This document shows positions 3,768-63,058 of a stretch of DNA of 64,000 nt, in pieces. A model generated the notes under the pieces. The model saw only the letters and a list, made by a program, of their open reading frames with translations. It searched no databases and was not told where the DNA came from. Position numbers and translations under genes: made by a program. The DNA lies in assembly GCA_003142795.1 (NCBI GenBank), contig PLNN01000017.1:512-64511 (forward strand), in the 5' to 3' direction. This DNA is from Candidatus Omnitrophota bacterium (lineage in GTDB: Bacteria; Omnitrophota; Gorgyraeia; 2-01-FULL-45-10). Position 1 is the first letter of the stretch. Every line of letters begins with the position of its first letter.

Positions 3768-5585
3768 CTAGATCATGATTTTGTTAGTATTATACATCTC
3801 ATGGTATAACCCTTTTATATCCATCAGCGCCTGATGGCTGCCTTCTTCCAAAATCTTCCCGTCTTTAATCACCAGGATCTTGTCGGCATGCATAATAGTG
3901 GAGATCTTATGCGCGATTATAATAACGGTTCTGCCTCTTGCTGAATTATCTATGGCCCTCTGGACGGCTATCTCGGATATGTTGTCCAGGGAATTTGTGG
4001 CTTCATCTAATATCAATATTTCCGGCTTCCTGAAGATGGCCCGCGCTATGGCTATCCGCTGCCTTTGCCCGCCCGATATCTTAATCCCTCTATCGCCGAT
4101 CACTGTATCATATCCCTGCGGAAATTGACTTATAAAATCGTGAGCATTGGCCTCTGTTGCAGCGCTGATCACTTCTTCCATATCAGCATCTTTGGTGCCG
4201 AGCGCAATATTATCCTTGATCGTTCCATGAAAAACAAAACTATCCTGCGTAACTAAGCCTATCTTGCCGAGCCAAGAAGATATGCGAACATTGTTCAGGT
4301 CTATATCATCTATGAATATGCTTCCTTTTGAGGCAGTTAATAGTCGCAGTATAAGATCTACTATGGTGGACTTACCGGATCCGGAGAACCCTACAATAGC
4401 CACGCTGGTACCTTTCTTTATATCAAAGCTAAGATCATTAAACAACGGATCGCGCCCCGGATACGAGAAAGATACGCTTTTAAATGAGATCTTGTCGCTG
4501 AATTTTTTTATCTCTACCATGCCGTCATGCGGCTTCGGGAAATCGGCCATAATACCATACGCTATCTCCACAACAGGAAGAAGCCCGAAAAAAGAGACCA
4601 CCTGGACGCCGAGAAGATTAAAGCATGGGATGATCCTCTGGATAGCGTACCCGACTATGGCGATAATTGGCAAGCTGCTGATAAAACTATTGGCGTAATA
4701 ATACTTCGATACCATCAGAAGGGCAATGAGTGATGACATCACCAAAAATTCGATTATAGCCGGCGGCAATAATAACCATACCGCTTCTTTAATAGTAATG
4801 CGTGAATATCTAACGACCGACGCCCTGAATCTTTCTACCCAAGCGCCGATCGACATAAATACTTTTATCTGCTTAATACCGGTAAATGCTTCGGCGGCAA
4901 TCTCATTTTGCTGTTCAAGCTCAAGGACCTTCTCCGCGCCTAAGCTATATGATACCTTTTTGCCTATAGCCCTTGTTACAAAATAATAAAAAGCAGTCAA
5001 TACGATAATAAATACCGTAACTTTAGGCGATATGAAAAAAAGCATCGCGATTATGACCAGTATCCTTAAAGCATTTACGGCAATTCGCGGTATATAATCA
5101 AAAAAAGTTGATGCTTCCAGAGGAACAGTTATGGTTCGGTGAATAAGCCAACCGTGTTTATGATTAAAGAAAAAGGTATACTCTGAATTTAAAAATCTAT
5201 TGAAAATAGCGTTATGAAAATCTCTCTTAATTTTATATGAAAAGTAACACCCAAGGAACTGACTAAGAAAAGAGAATAAAGCTTTTACTAAAAAACTTAT
5301 TATTAGCAATACGCAGCTCAGGACAAATATATTTTTTATAGCTACGTGATCCGAAATAAACGATATGATCAATGGAATTTTTGAAGGCGATTGAATCGAG
5401 ACCATTCGTTCCAGGGTCTGATTTAAAACTGTGTAAATCAATGCTATGTTGATGCCTTCCATCACCGCGAATACGACAAGTGAAAAGAATACCATCAAAA
5501 CAAGAAACCTGTATGGCCTCAGTAGAAATAGGATCATTTTATAAGTCTGATTTTTCGTAAAATTAAATTTTGCCGCACTACTCAT
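3768..5585 (-). CDS. ABC exporter, fused permease and ATPase half-transporter (MsbA/lipid-A-flippase-like)
   Basis: 605 aa. Six-TM N-terminal half; Walker A GFSGSGKST; ABC signature LSGGQRQR; Walker B ILILDEATNSLD. The true start may be the internal Met at MILFLL. Confidence 0.8.
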   Translation of the reverse strand: MSSAAKFNFTKNQTYKMILFLLRPYRFLVLMVFFSLVVFAVMEGINIALIYTVLNQTLERMVSIQSPSKIPLIISFISDHVAIKNIFVLSCVLLIISFLVKALFSFLSQFLGCYFSYKIKRDFHNAIFNRFLNSEYTFFFNHKHGWLIHRTITVPLEASTFFDYIPRIAVNALRILVIIAMLFFISPKVTVFIIVLTAFYYFVTRAIGKKVSYSLGAEKVLELEQQNEIAAEAFTGIKQIKVFMSIGAWVERFRASVVRYSRITIKEAVWLLLPPAIIEFLVMSSLIALLMVSKYYYANSFISSLPIIAIVGYAIQRIIPCFNLLGVQVVSFFGLLPVVEIAYGIMADFPKPHDGMVEIKKFSDKISFKSVSFSYPGRDPLFNDLSFDIKKGTSVAIVGFSGSGKSTIVDLILRLLTASKGSIFIDDIDLNNVRISSWLGKIGLVTQDSFVFHGTIKDNIALGTKDADMEEVISAATEANAHDFISQFPQGYDTVIGDRGIKISGGQRQRIAIARAIFRKPEILILDEATNSLDNISEIAVQRAIDNSARGRTVIIIAHKISTIMHADKILVIKDGKILEEGSHQALMDIKGLYHEMYNTNKIMI

Positions 5586-5616: not shown

Positions 5617-7029
5617 TTATATCGACCCTTCACTATCTTGCATATTTTTCGGCGAACGGTAGTACTGTGTCTTAACTAGATTTTCTTGCTTAATGCCCAT
5701 ATCCAATATCTCATTGCATCGCTTAAGGCCCTCCAAAACGTTGAATTCGAATTCTTTATCGCTCATCTTTGTCATATTCAAGCGCAAATCCTGACGATCG
5801 CCTAACTGCATCAGGTATTCTTCTTCATCTTTAATAAAACCATGTTGGATAGCGTAAGCATACATCGGCGAACCAGGCTGAGGGAGCAGATACCCTGCGG
5901 AAGGATAAATTCTATTTTTGATACAGCAGTCAAAAGTTTCTTTAATCGTCAGAGGAGTCTCTTCCGGATATCCGAATACCAGGCTTGTCCATACTGGCAA
6001 TCCCGCCTTGTGAAATAAAGACGTTTGTCTTGAAAACTGCTCAGGTGTAATGTATTTACACATTGCCTTAAGGATCTCCCGATCGGCTGACTCCAAGGAA
6101 TATGACATACCTAAACATCCAGCTTCTTTCATCTTGTATATAATTTTCATATCTTCATCGCTGGTAAACAAATTTGCACGACAATTAGCCGTCCAGTAAA
6201 AATGTAAATTTTTATCTACTATTTCCTGCGCCATCTCCAAAGCATGCTCCTTAGAATAAAACGTAAGCTCATCCCAGAAGAAAATATAATTCACTCTGTA
6301 TTTTTCGATGGAATGTTTTATTTCATCTACAATGGATTTTGGGGTACGGGGCCGGTATGGGCTCCCGTAAAAATTATGATAGCAGAAGGTGCACTTTGAA
6401 ATGCAGCCCCGTGCCGTATTAACCGGAAGCGCTCGAATTTCTTCTCTGGCTATCGGCAAAGGATCTTTTACTGAAGTTTTAGAATTCTCAATGTATAGCC
6501 CAACATCAAAGATAGAAAAATCTAATAAAGGCATATCTGATATATTTTTAATATTAGGCCGGGCAGGAGTCCTGACAATCGTGCCATTTTTTGGAAAACA
6601 AATGCCTTGTACTGTTTCAAGCGCCCTGCCTTCGTCAATGGCGCGCAGTAAATCCACGATGGTTTCATCACCTTCTCCCATTACTGCGATATTAACCATC
6701 GTACGCGTTAAAAGAGTGTCCACAATCGAAGTTGCTACGGAATTGCCAACAATAATTTTCGCATGGGGTTGATGTTTCTCAATCAATGCCGCTAATGCTT
6801 TAATAATCTTATAGCCTGTGACAATGCAACCCATGCATACAACGTCATATTTTTTCTTTTTGATACTATTCTCCACGTCGCGCTCTGATAAGCGATGCCC
6901 GTCGATATCTAGAAGATCAAAACTGAATCCGGCGTTCTTTATAGCTGTAGCGATATACCCAAGGCCTACGGGAAATAGCTTAACGGGTGACACGGGCCTT
7001 AAGGAAACATTGATGATCAATATGTTCAT
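5617..7029 (-). CDS. B12-binding-domain radical SAM enzyme (class B radical SAM, candidate C-methyltransferase)
   Basis: 470 aa. N-terminal Rossmann-like cobalamin-binding region followed by a CxxxCxxC-type motif (CISKCTFCYH). Confidence 0.65.
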   Translation of the reverse strand: MNILIINVSLRPVSPVKLFPVGLGYIATAIKNAGFSFDLLDIDGHRLSERDVENSIKKKKYDVVCMGCIVTGYKIIKALAALIEKHQPHAKIIVGNSVATSIVDTLLTRTMVNIAVMGEGDETIVDLLRAIDEGRALETVQGICFPKNGTIVRTPARPNIKNISDMPLLDFSIFDVGLYIENSKTSVKDPLPIAREEIRALPVNTARGCISKCTFCYHNFYGSPYRPRTPKSIVDEIKHSIEKYRVNYIFFWDELTFYSKEHALEMAQEIVDKNLHFYWTANCRANLFTSDEDMKIIYKMKEAGCLGMSYSLESADREILKAMCKYITPEQFSRQTSLFHKAGLPVWTSLVFGYPEETPLTIKETFDCCIKNRIYPSAGYLLPQPGSPMYAYAIQHGFIKDEEEYLMQLGDRQDLRLNMTKMSDKEFEFNVLEGLKRCNEILDMGIKQENLVKTQYYRSPKNMQDSEGSI

Positions 7030-7748
7030 GCTGCTCCTCTTAAAATCTTATACTTCAGTTGCGCCATTTTCCAATCTTCCTCGTTATCCAGATCCTGTGC
7101 TTCGGATTCCGTTATCTCAATAGGAACCGTATTGTCCGTGAATATCTTTCTCGTCTTTAAGAAAGCTGTGGAATCTAGCCAATAAAACTGTCCTGCATCA
7201 TGATAGGCGGGCATCAGGTTTTGGGACCTGGAATCAATGTTTTCGGGCCGTATCATCGACAAACGGCCGCCCTCTATCTTCAGCGCCCTCTGGATAGGGT
7301 AACCGAAACGCACAACGGGGATAACAGAGTCAGCATTTCTTTCCTTGAGCAGATCAAAAGCTTCTTTTAGCCTCCGGGACGTTAAAAAAGGCGCCGTAGG
7401 ATATATGCAGCAGCAATATTCAAAATTATCGCCTCTTTTTTTATATTCTAAAAGCACCTCTTCTATCACATCTGCCGTGGTCGCAAAATCGTCTGAGGTA
7501 TGCTTCGATCTCAAAAAAGGGACTTTTGCGCCAAATGAAATGGAAATATCGCGGATCTCTCTATCATCTGTAGAAACCACGACTTCATCAAAACAATGTG
7601 ATGTCAGCGCGGCATCTATTGAATATTTTAATATGGGCTGCCCCATAAAATCTCTGATATTTTTTCGCGGTATTCGTTTGCTTCCGCCGCGAGCGGTAAT
7701 AATAGCTACGCACTTATCCATTTTCTGCCTCCACGCCGATCTCGTCAT
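7026..7748 (-). CDS. pseF: pseudaminic acid cytidylyltransferase-like (CMP-NulO synthetase, copy 2)
   Basis: 240 aa. VAIITARGGSKRIPRKN motif typical of PseF/NeuA. Sits within the pseB-C-G-I neighbourhood. Confidence 0.65.
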   Translation of the reverse strand: MTRSAWRQKMDKCVAIITARGGSKRIPRKNIRDFMGQPILKYSIDAALTSHCFDEVVVSTDDREIRDISISFGAKVPFLRSKHTSDDFATTADVIEEVLLEYKKRGDNFEYCCCIYPTAPFLTSRRLKEAFDLLKERNADSVIPVVRFGYPIQRALKIEGGRLSMIRPENIDSRSQNLMPAYHDAGQFYWLDSTAFLKTRKIFTDNTVPIEITESEAQDLDNEEDWKMAQLKYKILRGAA

Positions 7749-7790
7749 CGAATGCGATGCATATGTATCGAAAATTTATCATTTTATAAA

Positions 7791-8744
7791 TTAAACAGTT
7801 TCAAGATCGAAGAATGTCTCCCCAATGGTTCTAACCGCGACACCGCTTGTGCATGTTGGTACATATTCAATAACCCGCCCCTCCTTCAAATCTATCCACC
7901 ATTTCACATCTTTAAACCCAAAACAATGACGTACATACACGGTGCTTGAAAATCTTGGATTGATCTCAAACGGCACATAGCCATTCTTGCCTTTTCTCAA
8001 CTGAACATTGATTGATCCTTCAAGCGATGATGCCTTAGCAATTTTTTGCGCAAGCGCTGTAAGTTCTCCATCCTGAACAAGCTGGGCATATTTGGTAAGG
8101 CTCCCATATCCCAAATACCTTTTAAAACCAATGGAATAAGTCTCGCGCCCCGTGGAGAATACTCCCATAGTATATTCCTCATCAGGCCCACCTACAATCT
8201 CCTGGACAAAGGCATCTTTCATTCTTTTTTTATAAAAAGAAAGTTCTTCATTATTTTCTATGCGCAGGACACCTTTTGCGCCCCATCCTCTTCTCTGTTT
8301 TAATAGCACGGGAAATGGCATTTCACTCTGAAACTGATCAATAAGAAAAGTTTTAGGGTGTGGGAGATCATTGTTTTTCAGAAAAAGAAAGGTCTCATAT
8401 TTGTCAAAAAACATTTTGATAAGGGCAGACTTGTTAATAAGAACTGTGGTTTTTTTGCCGAAAAATTCTCTGCGTTCATTATAAAATTCAATTTCGATCT
8501 CCGTAGTAGGAATAATACAGGAAATCGATTCCTTCTCCATTATATTTTTAACAAACTCAAAATAATTTTTGCTATCACTCGCATGCGGGGCTTGGAAAAA
8601 TAAATCAACCGCGTTCCTGCCGGCCGCAAAATTATCTACATCACAGCCGAAAAGCGTGACCTCGCATTCTATTCCTTTCAGGCATTTAAGTATGCTTTGT
8701 CCTATATCTCCGCCGACACCAGTTATTAAAATAGATTTCCGCAC
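7791..8744 (-). CDS. ATP-grasp domain protein (carboxylate-amine ligase)
   Basis: 317 aa. Short-form carbamoyl-phosphate-synthase-like ATP-grasp architecture. Located between PseF-like and the phosphoesterase. Confidence 0.55.
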   Translation of the reverse strand: MRKSILITGVGGDIGQSILKCLKGIECEVTLFGCDVDNFAAGRNAVDLFFQAPHASDSKNYFEFVKNIMEKESISCIIPTTEIEIEFYNERREFFGKKTTVLINKSALIKMFFDKYETFLFLKNNDLPHPKTFLIDQFQSEMPFPVLLKQRRGWGAKGVLRIENNEELSFYKKRMKDAFVQEIVGGPDEEYTMGVFSTGRETYSIGFKRYLGYGSLTKYAQLVQDGELTALAQKIAKASSLEGSINVQLRKGKNGYVPFEINPRFSSTVYVRHCFGFKDVKWWIDLKEGRVIEYVPTCTSGVAVRTIGETFFDLETV

Positions 8745-8746
8745 AA

Positions 8747-9439
8747 CTATCGCTCTTTTCTCTGTAAGATCTTGTAAAGATATGAATTTTTTTCTCTGCG
8801 CTTCATCACATCTCGCACCATCAGCATATTGTCATACTGAACTCTTTTGAACTCTACAAGATCCGAATCAATATCAATTATCGCATACGACGCACTATTA
8901 TAGTCCCGCGGCTGGCCGATCGATCCGGGGTTTATAATTCTTAATCTGCCTATCTTCCTGTCCATTGGATAATGAGTATGCCCCAATATCACAAACCGAT
9001 ATGGCAATCGGCTGAACCTATCAAGGCAGTCTTGAGGATATACGTATTCCTCTAAATAGTTCCAGGGACTCCCATGAAACATCCCTATGTTAAAATCGTC
9101 TAAAACATTCACTTTAGGCAACGCCCTTAAAAAGGATATGTTTTCTTCAGTTATATATTTCTTCAAAAGGCGCGAAGAATTTCCATAAGCTTCACTATAT
9201 TCCTTTTCTAATTTTGGATCATCGAGCATTTTGAGAAATATATCATCATGATTACCCGCTACACAATAAAGATTCTTCTCGTTTTTGAGAATATCGATGA
9301 TCTCATTCTGATAATAATAATATCCGCAAATATCGCCGACAAAACAATACAGATCACACGTTTCGGCGATTAGAGATCTCCACGCTTTCTCGAAAGCGTA
9401 AATATTCCCATGTACATCCCCGAATATACCTATTTTCAT
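8747..9439 (-). CDS. calcineurin-like metallophosphoesterase
   Basis: 230 aa. GDVHGN, GDxxD and GNHD metal-binding motifs. Confidence 0.7.
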   Translation of the reverse strand: MKIGIFGDVHGNIYAFEKAWRSLIAETCDLYCFVGDICGYYYYQNEIIDILKNEKNLYCVAGNHDDIFLKMLDDPKLEKEYSEAYGNSSRLLKKYITEENISFLRALPKVNVLDDFNIGMFHGSPWNYLEEYVYPQDCLDRFSRLPYRFVILGHTHYPMDRKIGRLRIINPGSIGQPRDYNSASYAIIDIDSDLVEFKRVQYDNMLMVRDVMKRREKNSYLYKILQRKER

Positions 9440-9445
9440 ATCTAT

Positions 9446-10300
9446 TCACCGTGGCTGTAGATACAGAACGGTACTCCTGCCTATGCCGCATTGATACAAA
9501 ATAGAATAAAATTTTGAAAGCAAATCCGGTTCATAGCAACGCAGAATGCGCTCCATATTAACAACCTTCTTAAAACTCGCCCTCCCCAGAGACTTGCGTT
9601 TGAGATAATCATCGCCCATCAGAAGAAACATTTCCATAGGAAAAGAACTTTCGCCGCGCAAGATGGTATATCCCGCCTTTTTTACCAAATTGCGGATTCC
9701 TTCTTTATCGAAATAATTAACGTGGTCGGGTAGCGCGATCCAATATGGCGTTAAATTATGTTCCTTTATATAGGCTAATTGGAATGGGTTGAATTCATTC
9801 GGCACCTCAACCATAACTATTCCGTTCTTTGCAATATTACTTTTCAAGCGTTGTAAAAATCCAAGTGCATCCGGAATGTGCTCTAAGATATAGGCGACAT
9901 TTACGACATCCCATCTCTTTTTAGAAAACTTTTGAAAAAATTCTTTTATAGAGATTTGATAGATTGAGATGCCCTTGGACGTCGCGATAGCAGCGGCTTT
10001 TTTGTTTAACTCGGTTCCCGTGCATTTCCACCCTTCTTTCTTGAAGTATTCAAGCTGCGCACCTTCCCAACACCCTATATCGAGTATGCTCCCACACGAT
10101 TTCCATTTTTTTATGCTTCTGACTTTTTCTCTCCATAGGTTGCTCGGCGTGCTTCTTCGATAAACATATTCATAAAATTTTTCCAATTCCTCCTCGCTAT
10201 ACATAGGAGATATGTGAGCATACCCGCATTTCTTACAAAAAATAACTTTACGATCTCTCTTCGTCAGAAGGAGCTCTCCCCGGCATTCTCCTTTCATCAT
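9446..10300 (-). CDS. class I SAM methyltransferase with N-terminal zinc ribbon
   Basis: 284 aa. CKKCGYAH Cys pair at the N-terminus; LDIGCWEG SAM motif. Confidence 0.6.
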   Translation of the reverse strand: MMKGECRGELLLTKRDRKVIFCKKCGYAHISPMYSEEELEKFYEYVYRRSTPSNLWREKVRSIKKWKSCGSILDIGCWEGAQLEYFKKEGWKCTGTELNKKAAAIATSKGISIYQISIKEFFQKFSKKRWDVVNVAYILEHIPDALGFLQRLKSNIAKNGIVMVEVPNEFNPFQLAYIKEHNLTPYWIALPDHVNYFDKEGIRNLVKKAGYTILRGESSFPMEMFLLMGDDYLKRKSLGRASFKKVVNMERILRCYEPDLLSKFYSILYQCGIGRSTVLYLQPR

Positions 10301-11352
10301 ATGTCACCTCGGGTTATTATAGCGCCATTTCTTCTATTTCTTTTCAGCGTTTTACCAATGACGCTATCAATCTCGACCGGATGTATGAAATCACAATGAA
10401 TCCCGATATTGCGCAAGGCTATCAGATCATCGGCATTTACAATCTGCCCCTTAGAAAGATCTTTCTTCGCGTAGAGACAGCGCTTATAAAAATAGAGCTC
10501 TTTTTCACAATCAAAAATCCTTCTCTTGCGAAATATATGTAATGCGCTTTCTGCCTGACGTATGGCCGTCACCATGCAACGAAACTCATCCGGCTCGAGG
10601 GCATAGATATGATCCGGCCCCGGAAGTTTTTTGCTTAATGTGATATGTTTTTCGATGACTCTTGCGCCTAGCGCCACTGATACTGTAGGGGCGATGATCG
10701 GATCAGCGGTATGGTCGGAATATCCAACGTTTATATTATACCGTGCACGAAAATATGGTATAACGCTCAGAAACGTTTCTTTGATCGGCGCAGGATATTT
10801 TGCGATACAATGCATAAGAACCGTTTTTTCTTCATAACCAAGGAGTATCTTGGTTATCATCATATCAATTTCTTCTTCAGTGCTTCCGCCTGTCGAAATA
10901 AAGAGTGGTTTTCCTGTTTTTTTCACTTCTTCTATAAGCTCCGAAAACATAGACTCGTAAGAAGCTATCTTAAACACATTGACATAAGGATTAATTACCT
11001 TTACGGCCTTCACGTCAAAAGGGGTTGCCATAAATTCTATGCCGCTTTTTTTCGCATATCTATAAAGTTCATCGATCCATTCGTAAGGAACCTCGTTTCT
11101 CTCGATTATGCTATAGAGACTATCGTTGATTCCCATATTTTTTAAATATCGTACCTTTATATGCTTATCCGGATACATAGTCTTCGCGCGGAATATCTGG
11201 AATTTTACCGCATCCGCCCCGGCATCGCGGGCAATGTCAATTAATTGCTTCGCCTGTCGCAAGGAGCCGTTATGATTTGAGCCCACCTCGGCTATTATAA
11301 AACACGGGGACTCATCACTTATTATCTTCCTACCAACGCGTATCTTATGCAT
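10297..11352 (-). CDS. pseI: NeuB-family nonulosonic acid synthase (pseudaminic acid synthase-like) with C-terminal SAF domain
   Basis: 351 aa. N-terminal FIIAEVGSNHNGSL..AKQLIDIA..GADAVKFQ is the NeuB/PseI/LegI hallmark. Context with pseB, pseC and pseG supports the call. Confidence 0.75.
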   Translation of the reverse strand: MHKIRVGRKIISDESPCFIIAEVGSNHNGSLRQAKQLIDIARDAGADAVKFQIFRAKTMYPDKHIKVRYLKNMGINDSLYSIIERNEVPYEWIDELYRYAKKSGIEFMATPFDVKAVKVINPYVNVFKIASYESMFSELIEEVKKTGKPLFISTGGSTEEEIDMMITKILLGYEEKTVLMHCIAKYPAPIKETFLSVIPYFRARYNINVGYSDHTADPIIAPTVSVALGARVIEKHITLSKKLPGPDHIYALEPDEFRCMVTAIRQAESALHIFRKRRIFDCEKELYFYKRCLYAKKDLSKGQIVNADDLIALRNIGIHCDFIHPVEIDSVIGKTLKRNRRNGAIITRGDI

Positions 11353-11384
11353 ACCGCATGGTCCTATGCTCGTTTATTCTCATT

Positions 11385-12461
11385 TTAAAATCTCCTTCTA
11401 TATATATATGCTAATATTTTTTTTACAGCCCTATGAACGCCGCGGCCATCGACTATTTTTTTTCCTCTCCGGCACCTCTCCGATCGCAGCTTCTTATCAA
11501 AGATGACAAGATCTAATTTCGCCTTCAACTTTTTCATGATTTTGTCGTTACTGCCTCTATCGCCTTTATAGCACCCCACATGCTCGATAACGCCGGCGCG
11601 CGAGAGAGCCCTGGAATGCCGCATTTGATTCTCTGCAACGGTTATGACTATAGAAGGAACTCCCATTCTGGCAAGCTCGTACAATGTCTGGCCACCTGCC
11701 GAGATCGTAATATCGGACTTGATCATTAGTTCTTTCATGGTATCGGCGTTCGGATCATAGATAAACCTTGTATTCTCGTCTCCACAGTTTTTTAATTTAT
11801 TTGCGTACTTAAAACCCCTGCTTATAACGACATCTTTGTTCAGGCCGGGATACTTATGAGCAAGTAATTTCAAAACTTTCGGCGTCACATTCATTGGATC
11901 GCAACCACCAAAAGTCACAAGCACGGTCTTGACATGTTTACGTATACGCTTCCGGGGAGCATCTAAAAACTCTTTTCTTAAGGGCGCATATCTGCTGCCA
12001 AGCAAATAAAAAACTCCATCTCTTTCTGGATACTCAATCTTTTCTGCGTAAGCAGCGCTATTTATCACGACGCCGGGAGGGTAATTTATACGCATATTAT
12101 CATCTATATAGACCGGCAGCTTCGCTATAATAGATATTTTCTTATAAAAATTAAGGTCAGCGAGATAAGAATCCACAAGGATAATGTCCATTTCTCGCGC
12201 GGTTTTCAATACTTCCGTCCTTGCCTTTAACCAGTTCAGTATCTTATACCGCTTTGATCTTAACATTCCTTTTACGCTGTCATCACCGCACACAATGATA
12301 TCTGGCTTTATACCCTTTTCTTCAAAGGCATGATAAAAAGCAAGGCATCTGGTGATATGCCCATATCCAATACTTTTCCCGCCTTCTGTTAATATCAATG
12401 CTTTCATTTTATCTCTTATTTTTATCGATCTACACAATGTCGGAAGAACCGGCTTCACCAT
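11385..12461 (-). CDS. pseG: PseG-like UDP-sugar hydrolase (GT-B fold, UDP-2,4-diacetamido-trideoxy-altropyranose hydrolase family)
   Basis: The ORF as tracked runs to 12578 and overlaps pseC by 124 nt. Internal Met candidates (MVKPV or MKALILTEGG) give a non-overlapping start. The KALILTEGGKSIGYGHITRCL N-terminus is PseG-like. Confidence 0.5.
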   Translation of the reverse strand: MVKPVLPTLCRSIKIRDKMKALILTEGGKSIGYGHITRCLAFYHAFEEKGIKPDIIVCGDDSVKGMLRSKRYKILNWLKARTEVLKTAREMDIILVDSYLADLNFYKKISIIAKLPVYIDDNMRINYPPGVVINSAAYAEKIEYPERDGVFYLLGSRYAPLRKEFLDAPRKRIRKHVKTVLVTFGGCDPMNVTPKVLKLLAHKYPGLNKDVVISRGFKYANKLKNCGDENTRFIYDPNADTMKELMIKSDITISAGGQTLYELARMGVPSIVITVAENQMRHSRALSRAGVIEHVGCYKGDRGSNDKIMKKLKAKLDLVIFDKKLRSERCRRGKKIVDGRGVHRAVKKILAYIYRRRF

Positions 12462-13615
12462 CCGGCCCCGAAGAAACCGGCTATTTTTTTCACAACATAA
12501 TCTATTTCCCTCTCTCGTATCGCGGGATACATAGGAATGCTGATCTCGCCTCCATAAAATTCTTCCGCTTTCCGGCAAAGCCCTTTAGCATATCCGAGCT
12601 GTTTATAGTATGGCTGGAGATAGACCGGGATGTAATGCACTTGAGCGCCTATACCAGAAGCCCGCAAAATATTAAAAAGAGGGGTCCTGTCCTTCGGATC
12701 CCTCGTTCTTATGCAATAAATATGATATGATGAACTAACATACGACCGCTCGACGGGCAATAGTATATCTTCGATGCCGCATAATTTTTTATTATACGTC
12801 TCGGCGATCTGGCGTCTTCTTATAACAAAAGTATTTAACTTTTTCAGCTGACTTAAGCCCAGCGCGCTCTGGATATCTGTTATACGATAATTAAAGCCTA
12901 AGCACTGCATTTCGTAGTACCAAGAGCCGGTTAAGCGCTGATCCTGGCACACGAAACGCAATCTATCCCTGCTTATCCCGTGGCTCCGCAGCATTAAAAG
13001 CTTTTCGTAAAGATCTTTTTTGTTCGTCAACACAGCCCCGCCCTCGCCCGTAGTGATACTTTTAACGGGATGAAAACTGAATATCGTCATATCGGAATAT
13101 TTGCAGGCGCCTATCTTTGAACCCTTATATTCTGCGCCCACGGCATGTGCGGCATCTTCAATAACGACAAGACCGTTTCGATCAGCTATGGCGCTTATCT
13201 CTTCCATATCGCACGGATGACCGGCAAAATGGACCGGAATGAGCGCTTTTGTCTTCTTGTGTATCTTGGTTTTTATCTCTTTAGGGTCTATGTTGATCGT
13301 GTCATGCTGCACATCGGCAAAAACCGGCCTTCCGCCGCAATATAAAACGCTATTTGCCGAAGCAAGAAACGTTATCGGAGAAGTGATAACTTCATCGCGC
13401 GCTTTTATACCGGCAGCCAAACATGCAATATGCAAAGCGGCCGTTCCGCTCGATACGGCCACGGCATATTTCGCGCCGGTATACCTGCAAAGGGCGTTTT
13501 CGAATACGTCCACATTCGGCCCCTGCGTGATATAATCCGATCTTAAAACTCTGACAACAGCATCAATGTCGTCTTGATCGATATATTGATGGCTATACGG
13601 GATAAATCTATTCAA
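12455..13615 (-). CDS. pseC: UDP-4-keto-6-deoxy-AltNAc aminotransferase (DegT/DnrJ/EryC1 family)
   Basis: 386 aa. FSFHPVKSITTGEGG PLP-lysine motif. QYIDQDDIDAVVRVLRSDYITQG N-terminus is typical of PseC. Confidence 0.8.
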   Translation of the reverse strand: MNRFIPYSHQYIDQDDIDAVVRVLRSDYITQGPNVDVFENALCRYTGAKYAVAVSSGTAALHIACLAAGIKARDEVITSPITFLASANSVLYCGGRPVFADVQHDTINIDPKEIKTKIHKKTKALIPVHFAGHPCDMEEISAIADRNGLVVIEDAAHAVGAEYKGSKIGACKYSDMTIFSFHPVKSITTGEGGAVLTNKKDLYEKLLMLRSHGISRDRLRFVCQDQRLTGSWYYEMQCLGFNYRITDIQSALGLSQLKKLNTFVIRRRQIAETYNKKLCGIEDILLPVERSYVSSSYHIYCIRTRDPKDRTPLFNILRASGIGAQVHYIPVYLQPYYKQLGYAKGLCRKAEEFYGGEISIPMYPAIREREIDYVVKKIAGFFGAGW

Positions 13616-14606
13616 TTCTTGTCCTTTCTATCATCCTTTTAATCTCAGGAACGCTCAACCATTGCTCATTCTTATCGCTACTGTATACGAATCCCTCGGG
13701 CGGGATCTTATATTTGTAATATTTACCATGGACATGCTTGCCCTCAAAGAATTCCGCAAGAATAACATACGCGCCTTTGAACATTCTTGTTTTGCGCGCC
13801 TCATCCTCCGATATTAGGGTTTCGTGCATCTTCTCTCCGGGGCGTATCCCTATTATTTTGAATCTGCACCGCGGCTCAATCGCCCTGGCCAGATCCGTTA
13901 TTTTCATCGACGGTATCTTCGGGATAAAGACCTCTCCGCCCACGGATTCCTTCAGGGCCTTCATGACTAAATTCACCCCCTGCTCCAGAGTTATCCAGAA
14001 ACGCGTCATGCGTTCATCGGTTATAGAAAACTCCAGATTCTTCTGCCTTTTACATTCGAGGAATAGGGGTATGACGCTTCCTCTTGAGCCGACAACGTTC
14101 CCGTATCTTACAGCTGAAAATTTGACACGACCGCCCGCATAAGCGTTTGCGGCTATGAATATCTTTTCGGCAGCTAATTTTGTGGCACCATACAGGTTGA
14201 TGGGACTGACGGCTTTATCGCTCGATAACGCAACTACTTTCTTAACGCCTCTATCTATGGCGGCATCTACTATATTATCCGCTCCAAGGATATTGGTTTT
14301 CACAGCTTCAACTGGATTATATTCGAGGGCTGGTACCTGTTTCAATGCCGCCGCATGGACCACATAATCTACGCTTTCAAATGCCCTGTAGAGACGACTC
14401 TTATCCCGTATGTCTCCCAGGAAATATCGTATCGGATATTTAGATACCGGGAATATCTTCGCCATCTCGTGTTGCTTGAACTCATCGCGGCTTAATATGA
14501 TAACCTTTTTGGGGTGACATCTTTTGAAAACCATCTCTGTAAATTTTTTCCCGAATGAACCCGTTCCGCCAGTTATAAGAATTACTTTATTATTAAGCAT
14601 ATCCAC
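13608..14606 (-). CDS. pseB: UDP-GlcNAc 4,6-dehydratase/5-epimerase (inverting)
   Basis: 332 aa. VILITGGTGSFGKKF Rossmann motif. PseB/FlaA1-like throughout. Confidence 0.8.
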   Translation of the reverse strand: MDMLNNKVILITGGTGSFGKKFTEMVFKRCHPKKVIILSRDEFKQHEMAKIFPVSKYPIRYFLGDIRDKSRLYRAFESVDYVVHAAALKQVPALEYNPVEAVKTNILGADNIVDAAIDRGVKKVVALSSDKAVSPINLYGATKLAAEKIFIAANAYAGGRVKFSAVRYGNVVGSRGSVIPLFLECKRQKNLEFSITDERMTRFWITLEQGVNLVMKALKESVGGEVFIPKIPSMKITDLARAIEPRCRFKIIGIRPGEKMHETLISEDEARKTRMFKGAYVILAEFFEGKHVHGKYYKYKIPPEGFVYSSDKNEQWLSVPEIKRMIERTRIE

Positions 14607-14619: not shown

Positions 14620-16410
14620 TTAATTATGCGGTGCCCCTGATCCGCTTCCTGTCAATACAGCTCGGAGCACGTCAATACCCCGATCGTCCGGATACTCATC
14701 AATCCTTCTTATAAGATCCTTCGGTATTTCACTCAGGACAGACATTTCGCCGTTCGATATGTCCCGTATCATCTTCAGCAGCTTATCACTCTCTTTAAAT
14801 ACCGCCTTATCTTTAAGTATCCTTGAAAAAGGATGATCAAGTTCGGCTTCATCCAGATAAAGCCCCTCGATTCCGCATATAATAGCTATAGTGGCCGAAC
14901 TGGTCATAGACTCTGTAACGACTATATCCGAAACGCCAATACATTCGATAAATGACCACTTTTTTTCGTCAATTATATGAGCGTTGCCTAGTTCTTCTAT
15001 ACGCTTTTTTATCTCAAGGAATCTATCCCTCAACTCGCGCGGAAGCTCGTGATATCGAGAAAGCTCTTTGGACTTCATGATCACGGTCAGCTTCGGCTCT
15101 TTCACAGCAAGCTCAAGCGCAGTTTTCCAAAAATTAACATAATGCTCCGCCTTAAGAACGCTTCCTCCGCCAAAACTTTCGTCAAAAAAAGTTACAACTT
15201 TTCCCACAGAATGTATCCCCATTTCCGAAAGTATATAGCTTCGCCTGAATTTGACGTTATTGATGAAGCGCTTAAAAATATAACCACTATGAATAAAAAT
15301 ATCCGACGCCTCTCTGCCGGTGAGTGCGTTGGCCGCGCCCCATGCAAAATATTTATCACAACCCAAGAAAGAAATACTATACTTTATAGAATCCGAAGAC
15401 ATATCAGACCCGTATGCCAGGTAGTATCTGGTTTTCATGTTTTGACAAACTATAGCTTCCGGAATGTGACGAGAGGAATAAAAACTATATCCTAACTCAG
15501 CCCCTATTTCGTAATTGGAAAATATCTTTTCGTATGGCAATGCATAAGAGATAAAATATCTTGAGATCCTTGAAAATAGGGAGAAGTTGGCAGAGCTTAT
15601 CTCGGCCGATAACGAACCCATCCCGCCCACCAGATAAAGAGGGATCACCCTGAAAAAGAAAGTGGCGAAACTTATTTTTAGAGATGGCAGGTAAAAAGTG
15701 TTAAACCGCAACATTTTTGCTTGCTGGTATGCCTTGTTCCGTTGTTCACATTGTTTAATATCTTTCCGCGAAAATAATAATAGGTCGTCTTTCTTTATGC
15801 TCTTTTCATCAACTAAAAAATCATCATGGAAATAATATCCTCCCGTAGGATAAAAGCCCCAGACCAATTCGCGCATAACCTTATATTTTTTCTTTGCCCT
15901 AAAAATAGCAATACCGCTATTCAGGCTAAAATACAGAACAAACAGGGCTTGAAAGAAAATCACAAAAATACATGATATCGTGTTCCTTCGCCTGACCCAT
16001 TTAATTTTCGGGATAATCTTGAATCTTGAAGAGAATTTTTCGAAAGCATATCTATTGATAGGATTATCATCCAGAACAAGCCGCCCGCTCTTAATTAAGT
16101 CATCTCTCGAAAAGCTATCCATGGCATTCAATAGGTCTATCATGTATTCGCAGATCCATTTTTTTAATAGACTATCAAATCGTTTCGTTTTAAAAACGGA
16201 ATTCATGCCTTTAATAAAAGCGGAGTCGCACAGTCTATTTTCTTGAACGAACGCTTCCACTAGACCTACTATATCAGAGCGGATCCAGTCGAAATGTTCG
16301 CGCCCATTTTGCAAGGGAATATCGATATCTTTCTCGCAATGGAATGTGCGATCGCCTAATAATGCCTGACTTATATAATTTTTTATTAACTTTTTAATTG
16401 ACGTTTTCAT
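14620..16410 (-). CDS. uncharacterised large protein, candidate GT-B-type glycosyl/phosphoglycosyl transferase (capsule-synthesis/TagF-like C-terminal region)
   Basis: 596 aa. Central hydrophobic segment. C-terminal VVTESMTSSATIAIICGIEGLYL resembles the nucleotide-binding SS motif region of TagF/KpsS-type enzymes. Confidence 0.3.
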   Translation of the reverse strand: MKTSIKKLIKNYISQALLGDRTFHCEKDIDIPLQNGREHFDWIRSDIVGLVEAFVQENRLCDSAFIKGMNSVFKTKRFDSLLKKWICEYMIDLLNAMDSFSRDDLIKSGRLVLDDNPINRYAFEKFSSRFKIIPKIKWVRRRNTISCIFVIFFQALFVLYFSLNSGIAIFRAKKKYKVMRELVWGFYPTGGYYFHDDFLVDEKSIKKDDLLLFSRKDIKQCEQRNKAYQQAKMLRFNTFYLPSLKISFATFFFRVIPLYLVGGMGSLSAEISSANFSLFSRISRYFISYALPYEKIFSNYEIGAELGYSFYSSRHIPEAIVCQNMKTRYYLAYGSDMSSDSIKYSISFLGCDKYFAWGAANALTGREASDIFIHSGYIFKRFINNVKFRRSYILSEMGIHSVGKVVTFFDESFGGGSVLKAEHYVNFWKTALELAVKEPKLTVIMKSKELSRYHELPRELRDRFLEIKKRIEELGNAHIIDEKKWSFIECIGVSDIVVTESMTSSATIAIICGIEGLYLDEAELDHPFSRILKDKAVFKESDKLLKMIRDISNGEMSVLSEIPKDLIRRIDEYPDDRGIDVLRAVLTGSGSGAPHN

Positions 16411-17608
16411 ATTGCCTTTTAGTAAGCGCTAAATTCTTGATACGATTTGAAAATATTTGCCAAAAAGGTAATTCTTCCGTATTGTCTTTTTTTATAAAAG
16501 CATTTTTATATGCTCTGTACGCCTTTTCATCTATCGTCATTTCTTTTTTAAAGTCTATTTCGAGCATTTCGTCGACATTTATTACGCCCTTCCCCAGGAA
16601 AGATGCCATTTGCCGTATCCACTCCCCCTGGAGGCTCCTTTGCAAGCTGTCCGTTGTAATGAATATCACCGGTTTTTTCTCTAATACCGCGTAATTGATA
16701 GACGTACTGCAATGGCCTATCACAAAAGACGCCCTTCTGATCAGCTCCATGGTCTTACCTTTAACGACGTGTCTTCCGCCAAAATAATCCGGATGATCTT
16801 CATATCGAGATCGCGGATAAGCAGCTATGGTTATATTCGTTCTATTCGCATCTTCCAAATGATCGAAAAACCTCCTTATAGGCGGATAATATTCCTCCGG
16901 CGTTGAAAACGGCGGCACTTTCATCATTGGATAGTGCGGATGAAAAGGAACATATTCATCTATGAAAACGCCCATCTTATTATCGATTTCTACGGTGTTT
17001 TTTATTTCCTCAAGATAAATGTCATAGTCTAGTGCGTGTATAAACAGCAATTCTGTCTGAGAACCAACCATATCTCTACGATCATTCGCGCGATATGCTC
17101 CTCCAATCAATACGAAACTTGCGGGATTTATGCCTAATATTTTATGGGGCACGCGGCAAAATAACGATTGTTTCAATGCTTCTATATCGCGCGTCTTTCT
17201 TAATATATTCAAAATGGCTTCCATAATAGAACCATTTTTCTTTATACTGAATGGTAACACGCTAGAGATGACACAATACATGATCTGCTTTTTGGAAATT
17301 GCCCGGAATAAAGAATATGAATTCACTCTATACTGTATGAGACATACCACCAGAACATCTTGTGTCAATTTGTAAATTTTTTCAAGCGCATCTTGCATTT
17401 TTTGAAATTCAAAATAGTGCTCATAGTAAACTATGTCGGCACCCTTCACATCCTCCACCACGCCTGGATACAAAAAAGGAGTGCAGTTCCACACCTCAAC
17501 CTCAAACCCGTTACTTCTTAAAACATCGATGCCAAACCTTTTATAATCCCGTTCATAAAATGACGTTTCAGTAATAAAAACTATTTTTTTGATTATACAT
17601 TTGTCCAT
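16394..17608 (-). CDS. uncharacterised protein with HP motif and TagF/sialyltransferase-like C-terminal region (candidate nonulosonic-acid transferase)
   Basis: 404 aa. VPFHPHYP and VIGHCSTSINYAVLEKKPVIF resemble the HP and S-S motifs of CMP-sugar-dependent GT-B transferases. Confidence 0.3.
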   Translation of the reverse strand: MDKCIIKKIVFITETSFYERDYKRFGIDVLRSNGFEVEVWNCTPFLYPGVVEDVKGADIVYYEHYFEFQKMQDALEKIYKLTQDVLVVCLIQYRVNSYSLFRAISKKQIMYCVISSVLPFSIKKNGSIMEAILNILRKTRDIEALKQSLFCRVPHKILGINPASFVLIGGAYRANDRRDMVGSQTELLFIHALDYDIYLEEIKNTVEIDNKMGVFIDEYVPFHPHYPMMKVPPFSTPEEYYPPIRRFFDHLEDANRTNITIAAYPRSRYEDHPDYFGGRHVVKGKTMELIRRASFVIGHCSTSINYAVLEKKPVIFITTDSLQRSLQGEWIRQMASFLGKGVINVDEMLEIDFKKEMTIDEKAYRAYKNAFIKKDNTEELPFWQIFSNRIKNLALTKRQYENVN

Positions 17609-17620: not shown

Positions 17621-18616
17621 CTATCTTTTATACAAACCCAGATATGATAGAATTATCTTTGTCATGCACTTAAGTTTTTCTATTTTAAAACGATTGATCA
17701 TCGTACCATAGTGGCCATCGATCCGGGGGCATGACGATACATCAGAATGTGTAAAAGTTCCGAACATATGGACCTCTTGAGCTGCTCCGATCTTAATAGA
17801 CTTCAATCCAGCCTTTGCACAATAATATTCAAATGTTAACGGGGTAAAATAATAGACATGTGCATTTTGCAATTGACCTATGCCGAAGTTCATGATGTTC
17901 GGGACCCCTATATATAAAAGGCCTGATTTATCCAGGTGGCGGATGATTTTCTTTAATGATTCCACCGGATCGGGGAAATGCTCCAGCGCGTGATTAATGA
18001 TTATAATGTCATACAACCCTTTGATATCGTCGATACTGCCCTGCTTCATATTTAAGCCGTGTCGATTACCCATATTGACAAGGCTTTCGCTGTAATCTAT
18101 CCCGACAACGGCCGCGCCTGCGTTGGCGAATAACACAAGGTTCCACCCTCCGCCGGCGCCTACCTCCAGCACAGACACGGTAGGATCTACGGTCCTGATA
18201 CCGGAGATCTCGTCAAATATATGCCGGCTATGCCGTGGCTCATATCTATCTTCATAGGTTATCAGGTAGTCCTCGCCTTCATAACAGAGTCTGTACATAT
18301 CCGAAGAATAGAACTTAGCATACTCCTTATCAGTCATCCTGGGGTTAGACTGGATAAGTCCGCACCGGACGCACATAATGGTCTTCTGCCGCATTGAATG
18401 CCTGTCTACGCTTGCTATCAGATCGAACTCTAAAGAACCGCATAGACAATTGACCGATTCAAACTCTATAAGGCCCTGCTCGGCCTTACGGTTAAACTCA
18501 ACTACAAGCTCCGACTGTCTCGGTGAAAGTCTCATAAATGAGCTTTCGGGGTTATGAAAATACTTGAAAGGCAGCAAGGTTCGCCGTATCTTTATATTGT
18601 TTTTGCTATTTTTCAT
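17621..18616 (-). CDS. class I SAM methyltransferase with N-terminal Cys4 zinc ribbon
   Basis: 331 aa. CLCGS..CVRCG; VLEVGAGGGWN motif I. Confidence 0.6.
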   Translation of the reverse strand: MKNSKNNIKIRRTLLPFKYFHNPESSFMRLSPRQSELVVEFNRKAEQGLIEFESVNCLCGSLEFDLIASVDRHSMRQKTIMCVRCGLIQSNPRMTDKEYAKFYSSDMYRLCYEGEDYLITYEDRYEPRHSRHIFDEISGIRTVDPTVSVLEVGAGGGWNLVLFANAGAAVVGIDYSESLVNMGNRHGLNMKQGSIDDIKGLYDIIIINHALEHFPDPVESLKKIIRHLDKSGLLYIGVPNIMNFGIGQLQNAHVYYFTPLTFEYYCAKAGLKSIKIGAAQEVHMFGTFTHSDVSSCPRIDGHYGTMINRFKIEKLKCMTKIILSYLGLYKR

Positions 18617-19298
18617 TAATCCCAGTCCCGAGAACCATCAATTCAACAGACCATCTGAAGAATTTGACTTTTGTCATATTGGTAAGCCTCCGCGCATTAG
18701 GCACGGATAACACCATTTGAAGAAAATTTGAGAACATCTTCAAAGACGGATAATGCCATAAAATCGGCATCTGATAAAAAAACTCTGTCTTCACCTCAGA
18801 AAATCCATATATAGTCAATAAATCCGAAAGGGCCCTTATATTATACGGCCTGGAATGCGTAAAATCTTCGTAAAAGACCTTCATCTGACTGACCCAATCC
18901 GGAGTCAGAATAATAACTCTGCCTCCCGGCTTCAAAACTCTGCAGGTTTCTTTCATTAAATGATCCGGGTTGCTAAAATGCTCGAGTACGGATTTGTGGT
19001 AGACTACGTCAAAAGCACTATCATCATACGGAAGCTTATCTTCTGAGATATCCAGGCATACAACATTAAGATGAGGCATATTCTTGGTACAATGGTCACT
19101 CGCATCTACCCCGTAACAGCTAAGGCCCAAGTCATGAAATGCCTCTAGAAAATCTCCTCGCCCGCATCCGATTTCCAGCAGTTTTGAACTCCTGCTCATG
19201 TTAAATCGACTTACCAGGTATGAGGCCAATTTAAAAGGATAGTTGCTTTTTGGCGCTCTATTTCGGTCATATACAACGGATACGTAATCTTTTTTCAT
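18606..19298 (-). CDS. class I SAM methyltransferase
   Basis: 230 aa. LLEIGCGRGDF motif I. Confidence 0.6.
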   Translation of the reverse strand: MKKDYVSVVYDRNRAPKSNYPFKLASYLVSRFNMSRSSKLLEIGCGRGDFLEAFHDLGLSCYGVDASDHCTKNMPHLNVVCLDISEDKLPYDDSAFDVVYHKSVLEHFSNPDHLMKETCRVLKPGGRVIILTPDWVSQMKVFYEDFTHSRPYNIRALSDLLTIYGFSEVKTEFFYQMPILWHYPSLKMFSNFLQMVLSVPNARRLTNMTKVKFFRWSVELMVLGTGINEK

Positions 19299-21890: not shown

Positions 21891-21905
21891 GTCTTCTCCT
21901 TATTA

Positions 21906-33540: not shown

Positions 33541-33547
33541 AGGGAAT

Positions 33548-41847: not shown

Positions 41848-41853
41848 TACGAA

Positions 41854-57044: not shown

Positions 57045-57050
57045 TCACAA

Positions 57051-58154: not shown

Positions 58155-58192
58155 TAAGGTGGGATTATATCATATTGTTATAGTAGATGCAA

Positions 58193-59035: not shown

Positions 59036-59036
59036 G

Positions 59037-59678: not shown

Positions 59679-59717
59679 CTTTAGCCTCTTTCCGTAAAAT
59701 TTTTCATTACTCGCATG

Positions 59718-59857
59718 TTGGCAGATACCGGCAGGGTGCCCTTGAGGCGTTAAATTTTGTGAGCGAGCGTCGCAATTGAATGATACAAATCTTGTACATA
59801 CCAATTGCAGCGAGCCACAAAATTAGCCGAAAGGGCCCCTGCCGGTCAATCTGCCCT
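59718..59857. repeat. about 140-bp imperfect palindrome (long hairpin-forming inverted repeat)
   Basis: GGCAGATACCGGCAGGGTGCCC (59718-) pairs with GGGCCCCTGCCGGTCAATCTGCC (-59857). Inner arms (GTGAGCGAGCGTCGCAATTG vs CAATTGCAGCGAGCCACAA) are also complementary. Centre is near 59790. Confidence 0.5.
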
Positions 59858-63056: not shown

Positions 63057-63058
63057 CT

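Follow-up and report, generated by a model that had tools for sequence, protein, structure and literature searches.

The canonical pathway to CMP-pseudaminic acid (CMP-Pse), known from Campylobacter jejuni and Helicobacter pylori, employs PseB, PseC, PseH, PseG, PseI and PseF. In Shewanella oneidensis MR-1, which has PseB and PseC and no clear PseH, the sfmABCDE operon links a NeuB-like gene to genes for an SDR, a SAM methyltransferase and an ATP-grasp 'carboxylate-amine ligase', and is required for a Pse-like sugar that is mono-acetylated and bears a methylated 236-Da substituent (PMC3765264). Strains of Clostridium botulinum carry N-methyl-glutamyl legionaminic acid and nonulosonic acids of 417 and 431 Da (PMC2674064). 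In the type B flagellin locus of Clostridium difficile, known for peptidylamido-glycans, the ATP-grasp protein CDR20291_0245 adjoins a sugar aminotransferase and is predicted to form an amide on an amino sugar at the expense of ATP (PMC5207246).

Operon layout and pathway assignment

Eight genes, all on the minus strand and overlapping or closely packed, occupy positions 7026-14606 of the window (the whole 64-kb stretch of DNA analysed here), and this segment is one operon, whose product is a pseudaminic-acid-type nonulosonic acid activated with CMP. Three of its products are equivalents of the canonical enzymes and exceed the NCBIfam trusted cut-offs, i.e. they are equivalog-level matches: PseB, the inverting UDP-GlcNAc 4,6-dehydratase (13608..14606; TIGR03589, 473.8 bits, cut-off 407.75; Pfam PF02719), PseC, the UDP-4-amino-4,6-dideoxy-L-AltNAc aminotransferase (12455..13615; TIGR03588, 508.5 bits, cut-off 423.5), and PseF, the CMP-pseudaminic acid synthetase (7026..7748; TIGR03584, 303.7 bits, cut-off 205.7). 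The PseG-like UDP-sugar hydrolase (11385..12461; PF04101), 358 aa long as called on the source contig (L001), is borderline with 150.4 bits, just under the TIGR03590 cut-off of 153.55, and its C-terminal tail contains no GNAT domain. The NeuB-family nonulosonic acid synthase of the Pse/Leg type (10297..11352; PF03102, with a SAF domain, PF08666) remains under both NCBIfam cut-offs (NeuB 279.5 against 399.65 bits, PseI 261.5 against 340.25) and matches SpsE (196 bits), PseI (8h2c, 183 bits) and NeuB (124 bits) in the PDB. The co-linearity of these five genes, as given in a preliminary description of this DNA, is thereby confirmed, and the PseG-like and synthase genes share it with the canonical pathway. 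PseB and PseC would convert UDP-GlcNAc to UDP-4-amino-4,6-dideoxy-L-AltNAc, from which the PseG-like hydrolase would take off UDP; the synthase would then condense the sugar with PEP and PseF would add CMP.

A legionaminic acid (Leg) route was considered and rejected: the LegB model reaches 59 bits (cut-off 475), the LegC-family model, on the pseC product, 258 (cut-off 420), and no LegG-type epimerase is present. The Pse-type assignment thus stands against a reassignment to Leg.

The operon nevertheless departs from the canonical pathway: PseH is missing, the synthase lies under the PseI cut-off, pseF adjoins a gene for a B12 radical SAM enzyme, and three extra genes are found between the synthase gene and pseF, where coordinates and Pfam matches place them as previously described. 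These encode a SAM-dependent methyltransferase (9446..10300; PF13489, Methyltransf_23, E = 7.3e-21), whose gene overlaps that of the synthase by 4 bases, a YfcE/MJ0936-like metallophosphoesterase (MPE; 8747..9439; PF12850, E = 2.4e-24; TIGR00040, 62 bits, cut-off 56) and its partner, a PylC-like ATP-grasp ligase of 317 aa (7791..8744; PF15632, PF02655, PF21360; NF009402, 215.1, cut-off 218), all on the minus strand.

The additional proteins and their relatives

According to its AlphaFold2 model (pLDDT 92.4), the ATP-grasp protein has a PylC-like carboxylate-amine ligase fold. Its structural neighbours in Foldseek are PylC, PurK, biotin carboxylase and L-amino-acid ligases, PylC being the top characterised match (TM about 0.72-0.74), and the PylC-like N-terminal domain also gives a Pfam match. 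Its invariant features include an E-x-N-x-R motif and, near the N-terminus, a G-G-D-x-G loop. PylC, a 3-methylornithine-lysine ligase, and the L-amino-acid ligases have this fold in common with the window protein, but share only ~18% sequence identity with it and act on unrelated substrates; the likeness supports a mechanism class, not family membership. The MPE displays the catalytic motifs GDVHG, GD, GNHD and GHTH in its translation. The methyltransferase had been labelled a 'Zn-ribbon' protein; its N-terminal Cys3-His motif (C6, C22-x2-C25, H29) is kept in six methyltransferases of the window's subtype, which bears out the label in part, but a Pfam zinc-ribbon match is absent.

An MPE gene and, after it, an ATP-grasp gene form a translationally coupled module that is widespread in nonulosonic acid loci. 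The ATP-grasp family counts 1304 homologues at E <= 1e-10, with at least 433 matches in species genomes. An MPE homologue is located directly upstream of the ATP-grasp gene in 71 of 82 loci, at a median gap of -4 bases, and the two are fused in one locus (L077); NeuB occurs in 65 of the 82, in 31 of them directly downstream of ATP-grasp. Among 42 fully flanked loci, MPE is present in 41, NeuB in 38, and PseC and PseG in 29 each. Compact PseB-PseC-PseF-PseG-SDR-MPE-ATPgrasp-NeuB operons that do not contain a GNAT are found in Bacteroidota and Firmicutes. At about 9 of the 42 loci a sugar aminotransferase is missing within 10 kb, so that the neighbourhood of the cassette does not in every case reveal an amine acceptor. 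That the ligase has the MPE as its obligate partner, to which it is translationally coupled, had been overlooked in the preliminary description, and we found no paper describing the MPE-ATP-grasp module in the open-access literature.

The family is present in the flagellar glycosylation islands of C. botulinum: in these and in those of C. tetani the cassette adjoins flagellin and Maf genes, and the same MPE, ATP-grasp (48% identity) and Methyltransf_23 genes stand beside CTP_transf_3 and NeuB+SAF genes. The surroundings differ, since the window has genes of a polysaccharide or glycoconjugate setting (Wzx, PMT_2, GT4, ABC exporter) and no flagellin; moreover, a bona fide PseH (143 bits), missing from the window, is encoded in the C. 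botulinum locus. A connection between the clostridial cassette and the glutamyl group is putative. The Shewanella sfmABCDE operon, from a strain that resembles the window in having PseB and PseC and no clear PseH, may be taken by analogy as a genetic precedent for the cassette (PMC3765264). However, it includes a TPP enzyme and no metallophosphoesterase, and SfmE, an ATP-grasp_4 protein with a putative role, has 412 aa against the 317 aa of the window protein. The C. difficile type B sugar is not a nonulosonic acid, and its ATP-grasp, of predicted function, has no MPE partner (PMC5207246).

GNAT distribution and the proposed acylation

No main ORF of the 64-kb window has a Pfam match to a GNAT or hexapeptide (LbH) acyltransferase, and when the whole window was translated in six frames from stop to stop, an HMM trained on 28 GNATs that are linked to related clusters gave no match, even at E <= 10. 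The scaffold is likewise devoid of a GNAT for 10 kb past the window start. The reported absence of PseH from the window therefore holds; yet the sequence comes from a 148-kb metagenome scaffold, and pseH may consequently lie elsewhere in the genome.

The further claim that the cassette replaces PseH is not borne out by comparison with related loci. A GNAT lies beside the MPE-ATP-grasp cassette in 18 of 44 complete clusters (41%) and in four of five loci sharing the window's gene order, and in one locus ATP-grasp is fused to a GNAT. Because a linked GNAT is missing equally often from cassette-free Pse-type clusters (present in 14 of 28; Fisher p = 0.48 against cassette clusters), such a replacement is unsupported by the data. 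The GNATs adjoining ATP-grasp, on the other hand, reach 36-54 bits, far under the PseH cut-off of 93, and may for this reason not be PseH. The cassette is best regarded as an add-on for tailoring, which may stand in for PseH in this operon, and not as a general PseH replacement.

The reading that we tentatively favour is that of a Pse-type operon with an ATP-grasp/MPE/methyltransferase tailoring cassette that acylates an amino group, as an add-on which may take the place of PseH. Most likely, a non-acetyl and possibly phosphorylated acid is ligated to the sugar amino group as an ATP-dependent amide, dephosphorylated by the MPE, and then methylated. ATP-grasp would form an acyl phosphate from ATP and a carboxylic acid other than acetate (an amino acid, a hydroxy acid or a sugar acid, possibly phosphate-bearing) and join this acid to the amine. 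The acceptor here is probably the 4-amino group installed by PseC (the future N7), since the surrounding 74 kb or so offer no other enzyme that could acylate it. By analogy, the MPE may remove phosphate from the appended group, and the product would be methylated by the methyltransferase and probably also by the adjacent B12 radical SAM enzyme. Non-acetyl N-acylation by ATP-grasp had been proposed before; the ligase fold and the tight linkage of the family to NeuB genes agree with it, while the ligase chemistry, the part played by the MPE, N7 as the acceptor and the nature of the acid are what we infer. The ATP-grasp-GNAT fusion, together with the formyltransferase or methyltransferase genes that adjoin ATP-grasp in some related loci, would fit a capping of an appended amino acid. 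The Pse cluster carries a widespread pair, a phosphoesterase and a ligase that depends on ATP, by which an unusual side group is probably added.

Alternatively, though this appears rather unlikely, the pathway might be an ordinary one, in which a canonical pseH elsewhere allows Pse5Ac7Ac to be made first and the cassette acts on the CMP-sugar or modifies another position, be it a hydroxyl or a de-N-acetylated N5. A linked GNAT is missing from half of the Pse-type clusters that have no cassette, hence unlinked pseH is common, and the joint occurrence of cassette and GNAT in 41% of clusters points the same way. PIG-L de-N-acetylase and formyltransferase pairs come after ATP-grasp in several loci, so that N5 exchange exists among cassette loci; neither gene is found in the window, however. 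Against an ordinary pathway also stand the low scores of the GNATs next to ATP-grasp and the absence of any GNAT from about 74 kb of the glycan island, which is very large and has four DegT aminotransferases.

In the capsule of Campylobacter jejuni, the amidoligase Cj1438 and a phosphatase amidate a sugar carboxylate with a phosphorylated amine and then dephosphorylate it. The obligate pairing of ATP-grasp and phosphoesterase matches this logic, by which ATP-grasp would activate the sugar carboxylate, and in one subtype of loci (L030-L032, L035) the pair stands beside a dehydrogenase of the PdxA family and an enzyme of the inositol monophosphatase family, both with phosphorylated substrates. 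We nonetheless consider such a reversed ligation improbable, as neither pseudaminic nor legionaminic acids are known to us as C1 amides, and no PdxA or IMPase homologue occurs near the cassette in the window.

PurK and the biotin carboxylases among the closest structural neighbours, and the NCBIfam family name 'carbamoyl phosphate synthase-like', could suggest a carboxylase that N-carboxylates the 4-amino group via carboxyphosphate, the methyltransferase then yielding a methyl carbamate, or else a CoA-independent acetate-amine ligase leading to normal Pse5Ac7Ac. Both versions are very doubtful: they leave the MPE no role, the best characterised neighbour, PylC, is an amino acid-amine ligase, and to our knowledge no N-methoxycarbonyl nonulosonic acid exists. 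That the cassette serves to make some other metabolite and only happens to lie within the island is the least credible reading, for although the pair occurs with no NeuB within 10 kb in four loci (L028, L031, L055, L081), NeuB accompanies it in nearly all fully flanked loci, often directly downstream, and here its genes overlap or nearly abut their neighbours inside the operon.

Flanking genes

The B12-binding radical SAM enzyme, a probable methyltransferase (5617..7029, minus strand; PF02310, PF04055), overlaps pseF by 4 bases and has homologues near the cassette in 11 related loci. It is followed by an ABC exporter with transmembrane and ATPase domains (3768..5585, minus strand; PF00664, PF00005), homologues of which lie near the cassette in six related loci. 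Directly upstream of pseB, a 596-aa protein of an unnamed family (14620..16410, minus strand) gives no match in Pfam or the PDB; it is a possible sugar transferase, and its relatives of about 640 aa are found downstream of ATP-grasp or GNAT, beside Wzx, in seven other loci.

The pseudaminic acid genes and the search for PseH

The genes between positions 23 and 34654 of the window form a tightly packed series, all on the minus strand, and the pseudaminic acid (Pse) core among them is ordinary. As the preliminary description of this region had proposed, pseB (13608-14606), pseC (12455-13615) and pseF (7026-7748) are present, and all three exceed the trusted cut-offs of their NCBIfam models, with 473.8 bits against 407.75 (TIGR03589), 508.5 against 423.5 (TIGR03588) and 303.7 against 205.7 (TIGR03584), respectively. 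The genes that it named as PseG and PseI/NeuB synthase are likewise there, but their scores stay below the respective cut-offs: The GT28-like, PseG-like gene (11385-12461) reaches 150.4 bits against 153.55 (TIGR03590), and the synthase with NeuB and SAF domains (10297-11352) reaches 261.5 bits against 340.25 with the PseI model (TIGR03586) and fits the NeuB model a little better (279.5 against 399.65). Compared with PDB entries, the synthase is about as close to SpsE as to PseI, and more distant from NeuB. A reassignment of these enzymes to the GDP-linked legionaminic acid route can be ruled out, as the window yields 59 bits with the LegB model (TIGR04180, cut-off 475) and 258 bits with the LegC-family model (TIGR04181, cut-off 420), and Pfam recovers no LegG-type epimerase (Epimerase_2 type) among its ORFs.

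PseH, the GNAT N-acetyltransferase of the pathway, is indeed missing from the window. No main ORF has a Pfam match to a GNAT or hexapeptide (LbH) acyltransferase, and a custom GNAT HMM, built from 28 GNATs of related clusters, found no match at E <= 10 in the six-frame stop-to-stop translation. A hidden PseH was sought in the C-terminal tail of PseG, in small ORFs and among pseudogene fragments, and none was found. The whole window encodes four DegT aminotransferases, yet no N-acyltransferase of any Pfam family. The source scaffold, of metagenomic origin, is 148 kb long, and its 10 kb past the window start are also devoid of a GNAT. The glycan island goes on there, with genes for a sugar isomerase-like protein and an aminotransferase, for methyltransferases and a second B12 radical SAM enzyme, and for a 2-hydroxyacid dehydrogenase and a HAD hydrolase.

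The metallophosphoesterase and ATP-grasp cassette

Between the synthase and pseF, Pfam confirms the three additional genes of the preliminary description, which encode a Methyltransf_23 protein (9446-10300), a YfcE-type metallophosphoesterase (MPE, 8747-9439) and an ATP-grasp protein (7791-8744). The MPE (PF12850, E = 2.4e-24; TIGR00040, 62.1 bits against a cut-off of 56.25) retains a complete set of the catalytic and metal-binding motifs that characterise calcineurin-like enzymes of the YfcE/MJ0936 type (D-x-H, G-D, G-N-H-D/E, H, G-H-x-H), which its translation shows as GDVHG, VGDICG, GNHD, FHGSP and GHTHYP. The ATP-grasp protein (PF02655 and PF15632) gave an AlphaFold2 model with a pLDDT of 92.4, for which Foldseek returned E = 1e-17 to both 2pn1 and PylC. 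The residues E260, N262 and R264 of its Mg-ATP motif E-x-N-x-R are invariant in 25 homologues, and so is the N-terminal G-G-D-x-G loop. The modelled fold and the motif place the protein in the superfamily of ATP-grasp carboxylate-amine/thiol ligases, with a predicted ligase activity.

The ATP-grasp family is large, with 1304 homologues at E <= 1e-10 and at least 433 matches in contigs representing one genome per species, and it extends over Omnitrophota, Planctomycetota, Elusimicrobiota, Firmicutes, Bacteroidota, Desulfobacterota and archaea. In a sample of 82 related loci, whose ORFs were called and then classed by profiles, an MPE gene lies directly upstream of the ATP-grasp gene in 71, at a median gap of -4 bases, and the exceptions are mostly contig ends or artefacts of ORF starts. 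In the window the two genes are coupled, with two bases between the stop codon of the MPE and the start codon of the ATP-grasp gene, and in one locus (L077) both are fused into a single protein. Of the 82 loci, 65 contain a NeuB gene, which lies directly downstream of the ATP-grasp gene in 31, and in the window it sits two genes upstream of the pair. Where the sequence extends for at least 8 kb on either side (42 loci), MPE genes occur in 41, NeuB in 38, cytidylyltransferases in 34, SDRs in 31, PseG and PseC in 29 each, PseB in 23, methyltransferases in 22 and GNATs in 18. These counts, together with the adjacency of the MPE, describe a cassette whose core, MPE followed by ATP-grasp, is invariant and whose partner varies between a classical SDR, an RmlD-like SDR and a methyltransferase, or combines two of them. 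The cassette is a widespread and conserved module of which the window holds one member. The gene order of the window (PseG, NeuB, a 285-aa methyltransferase, MPE, ATP-grasp) is repeated in L010, L011, L016, L053 and L073. Clostridium botulinum and C. tetani carry the cassette in the flagellar glycosylation island, where it adjoins flagellin and Maf genes.

The MPE is not a substitute for PseG, because 38 of the 42 fully flanked loci possess either PseG or a 259-aa family without Pfam match (f13). PseG and f13 exclude each other (29 and 9 loci, no overlap), and f13 may represent an alternative NDP-sugar hydrolase. Several loci carry gene fusions: a cytidylyltransferase joined to a class-III aminotransferase in five (L010, L011, L027, L053, L060), NeuB to a cytidylyltransferase in three (L065, L069, L070) and PseG to an SDR in one (L070). 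Genes for a PIG-L de-N-acetylase and a formyltransferase occur together near the ATP-grasp gene in L011, L017, L024, L037, L059 and L068, which suggests either an exchange of the N5-acetyl for a formyl group or N-formylation of an appended amino acid.

A possible role in N-acylation

The window adds a case in which no candidate for N-acylation other than the MPE and ATP-grasp pair is visible. The ligase would attach an acid other than acetate to an amino group of the sugar, and the MPE would take off a phosphate carried by the ligated acid. The acceptor would probably be the 4-amino group installed by PseC, the future N7, because no other nearby gene can acylate that amine. The methyltransferase, and probably also a B12 radical SAM enzyme whose gene overlaps pseF (5617-7029), would then methylate the product. 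Tentatively, the pair may be read as a CoA-independent system for the N-acylation of nonulosonic acids, which ligates to the sugar amine either phosphorylated acids of central metabolism, for instance phosphoglycerate, phosphoserine or sugar acids of the KDPG type, or amino acids, and then removes the phosphate, and which in this bacterium might fully replace PseH.

As a general rule, the replacement of PseH by the cassette, which the preliminary description had put forward for this window, is not supported. Compact operons without a GNAT (PseB-PseC-PseF-PseG-SDR-MPE-ATPgrasp-NeuB) in Bacteroidota (L082-L084) and Firmicutes (L025) speak for it. Against it, 18 of the 44 complete clusters with the cassette encode a GNAT, as do four of the five loci that share the gene order of the window, and in L038 the ATP-grasp protein is fused to a GNAT. 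With 80 PseC-anchored metagenome loci as control, GNATs occur in 14 of 28 complete Pse-type clusters without the cassette, a frequency that does not differ significantly from that of the cassette-bearing clusters (Fisher p = 0.48). In a stricter set (PseB, PseC, PseG and NeuB all present) the counts are 12 of 21 without and 7 of 21 with the cassette (p = 0.21). Both comparisons use small numbers and an HMM that may overlook divergent acetyltransferases. A missing linked GNAT is therefore common among Pse clusters at large and not specific to the cassette. This similarity leaves room for a different explanation, namely that an unlinked pseH resides elsewhere in the genome and the cassette acts at another place on the sugar; we consider this a possibility of modest weight, to be set beside the lack of any other acylation candidate in the window. 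One observation weakens the case against replacement: GNATs that adjoin the ATP-grasp gene reach only 36-54 bits with the PseH model (cut-off 93), and the GNAT of C. botulinum (143 bits) is the only clear PseH. Formyltransferases fill the same slot in other loci, and both enzyme types could cap an amino acid added by the ligase, instead of acting as PseH.

Non-acetyl N-acylation, as proposed here for the pair, resembles the logic of ATP-grasp amidoligase and phosphatase known from the Campylobacter capsule, but the orientation is opposite. A reverse ligation, in which the carboxylate of the sugar is joined to a phospho-amine, would share the capsule orientation and is unlikely. The nearest characterised structural neighbour of the ATP-grasp protein in Foldseek is PylC, which joins an amino acid to an amine, and next in that ranking come PurK, biotin carboxylases and L-amino-acid ligases. 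A carboxylase or acetate-ligase activity of the protein appears improbable. Least credible is an unrelated metabolite as product of a cassette so regularly accompanied by NeuB genes. In the open-access literature we found no paper describing the cassette, and the matches for ATP-grasp or MPE together with nonulosonic acids included the sfm operon of Shewanella and a C. difficile locus that makes no nonulosonic acid.

Flagella, capsules, lipopolysaccharides and S-layers carry pseudaminic and legionaminic acids as decorations, and the N-acyl groups of these sugars shape immune recognition and probably phage recognition as well. For most non-acetyl N-acyl groups, we know of no genes that install them. 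That products of the proposed kind occur in nature is shown by several sugars, among them the N7-glyceroyl Pse of Tannerella forsythia, for which the responsible genes are explicitly stated to be unknown (PMC5378307, PMC6120980), the N-methyl-glutamyl legionaminic acid and the 417/431-Da nonulosonic acids of C. botulinum (PMC2674064), and a Pse with a 2-methoxy-4,5,6-trihydroxyhexanoyl group in Treponema denticola (PMC13439194). Shewanella oneidensis bears a Pse-like, mono-acetylated sugar with a methylated 236-Da substituent, which requires an operon with NeuB-like, TPP, SDR, methyltransferase and ATP-grasp genes, and the species has no clear PseH (PMC3765264). By described domain content only, its SfmE, SfmD and SfmA resemble the ATP-grasp, methyltransferase and NeuB-like proteins of the window (PMC3765264). 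Neither Tannerella nor Treponema is among the best 120 named homologues listed. The pair is kept in hundreds of species, C. botulinum and C. tetani included, and this conservation, the clear chemical logic and the lack of an assigned function make it a concrete and testable candidate for non-acetyl N-acylation. If the proposal is correct, it would supply the long-missing genetic basis of such groups, for example glyceroyl (Tannerella, Vibrio), N-methyl-glutamyl (C. botulinum) and 2-methoxy-trihydroxyhexanoyl (T. denticola).

Other genes of the glycan island

The island of this uncultured bacterium is unusually rich in methylation and radical SAM genes. It holds five radical SAM genes, three of SPASM type and two B12-binding (23-1057, 1821-2987, 5617-7029 and 21906-22703 of the window, and 13858-15417 of L085), and at least eight SAM methyltransferase genes, which suggests that the sugar is unusually heavily modified. 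A second nonulosonate-like module (19295-23584, minus strand) comprises a short NeuB homologue of 294 aa without SAF domain, of the same size and type as Shewanella SfmA, a third CTP_transf_3 cytidylyltransferase (141 bits with the PseF model, under the cut-off), a radical SAM/SPASM enzyme, a class-III aminotransferase and a VOC/glyoxalase-fold protein, and is followed by two methyltransferases (17621-19298). The product of this module may be a second ulosonic acid, or else the acyl donor that the ligase uses.

Directly upstream of pseB, two proteins of 596 and 404 aa (14620-17608, minus strand) have neither a Pfam nor a PDB sequence match. Relatives of the former, of about 640 aa, adjoin Wzx downstream of the cassette in seven other loci, and the 596-aa protein is a candidate nonulosonic acid transferase. 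An FdtA-like isomerase and a DegT aminotransferase of the 3-amino-3,6-dideoxyhexose route (31035-34654, minus strand) are not accompanied by the usual FdtC-type acetyltransferase. The divergent cluster on the plus strand (35343-43179), with a nucleotidyltransferase, a 4,6-dehydratase, an epimerase, a 593-aa TPP-dependent enzyme, DegT, GT2 and PMT_2, resembles pathways of branched-chain (yersiniose-type) sugars.

The glycan island (1-36000) has a GC content of 0.38-0.45, compared to 0.49-0.50 at the housekeeping end (56000-64000), which holds acetyl-CoA carboxylase and asparagine synthase genes; this contrast fits a horizontally exchanged surface-glycan locus. A 731-aa ORF without Pfam match (51991-54186, minus strand) is flanked by a UDP-glucose dehydrogenase gene on one side and two GGDEF diguanylate cyclase genes on the other.
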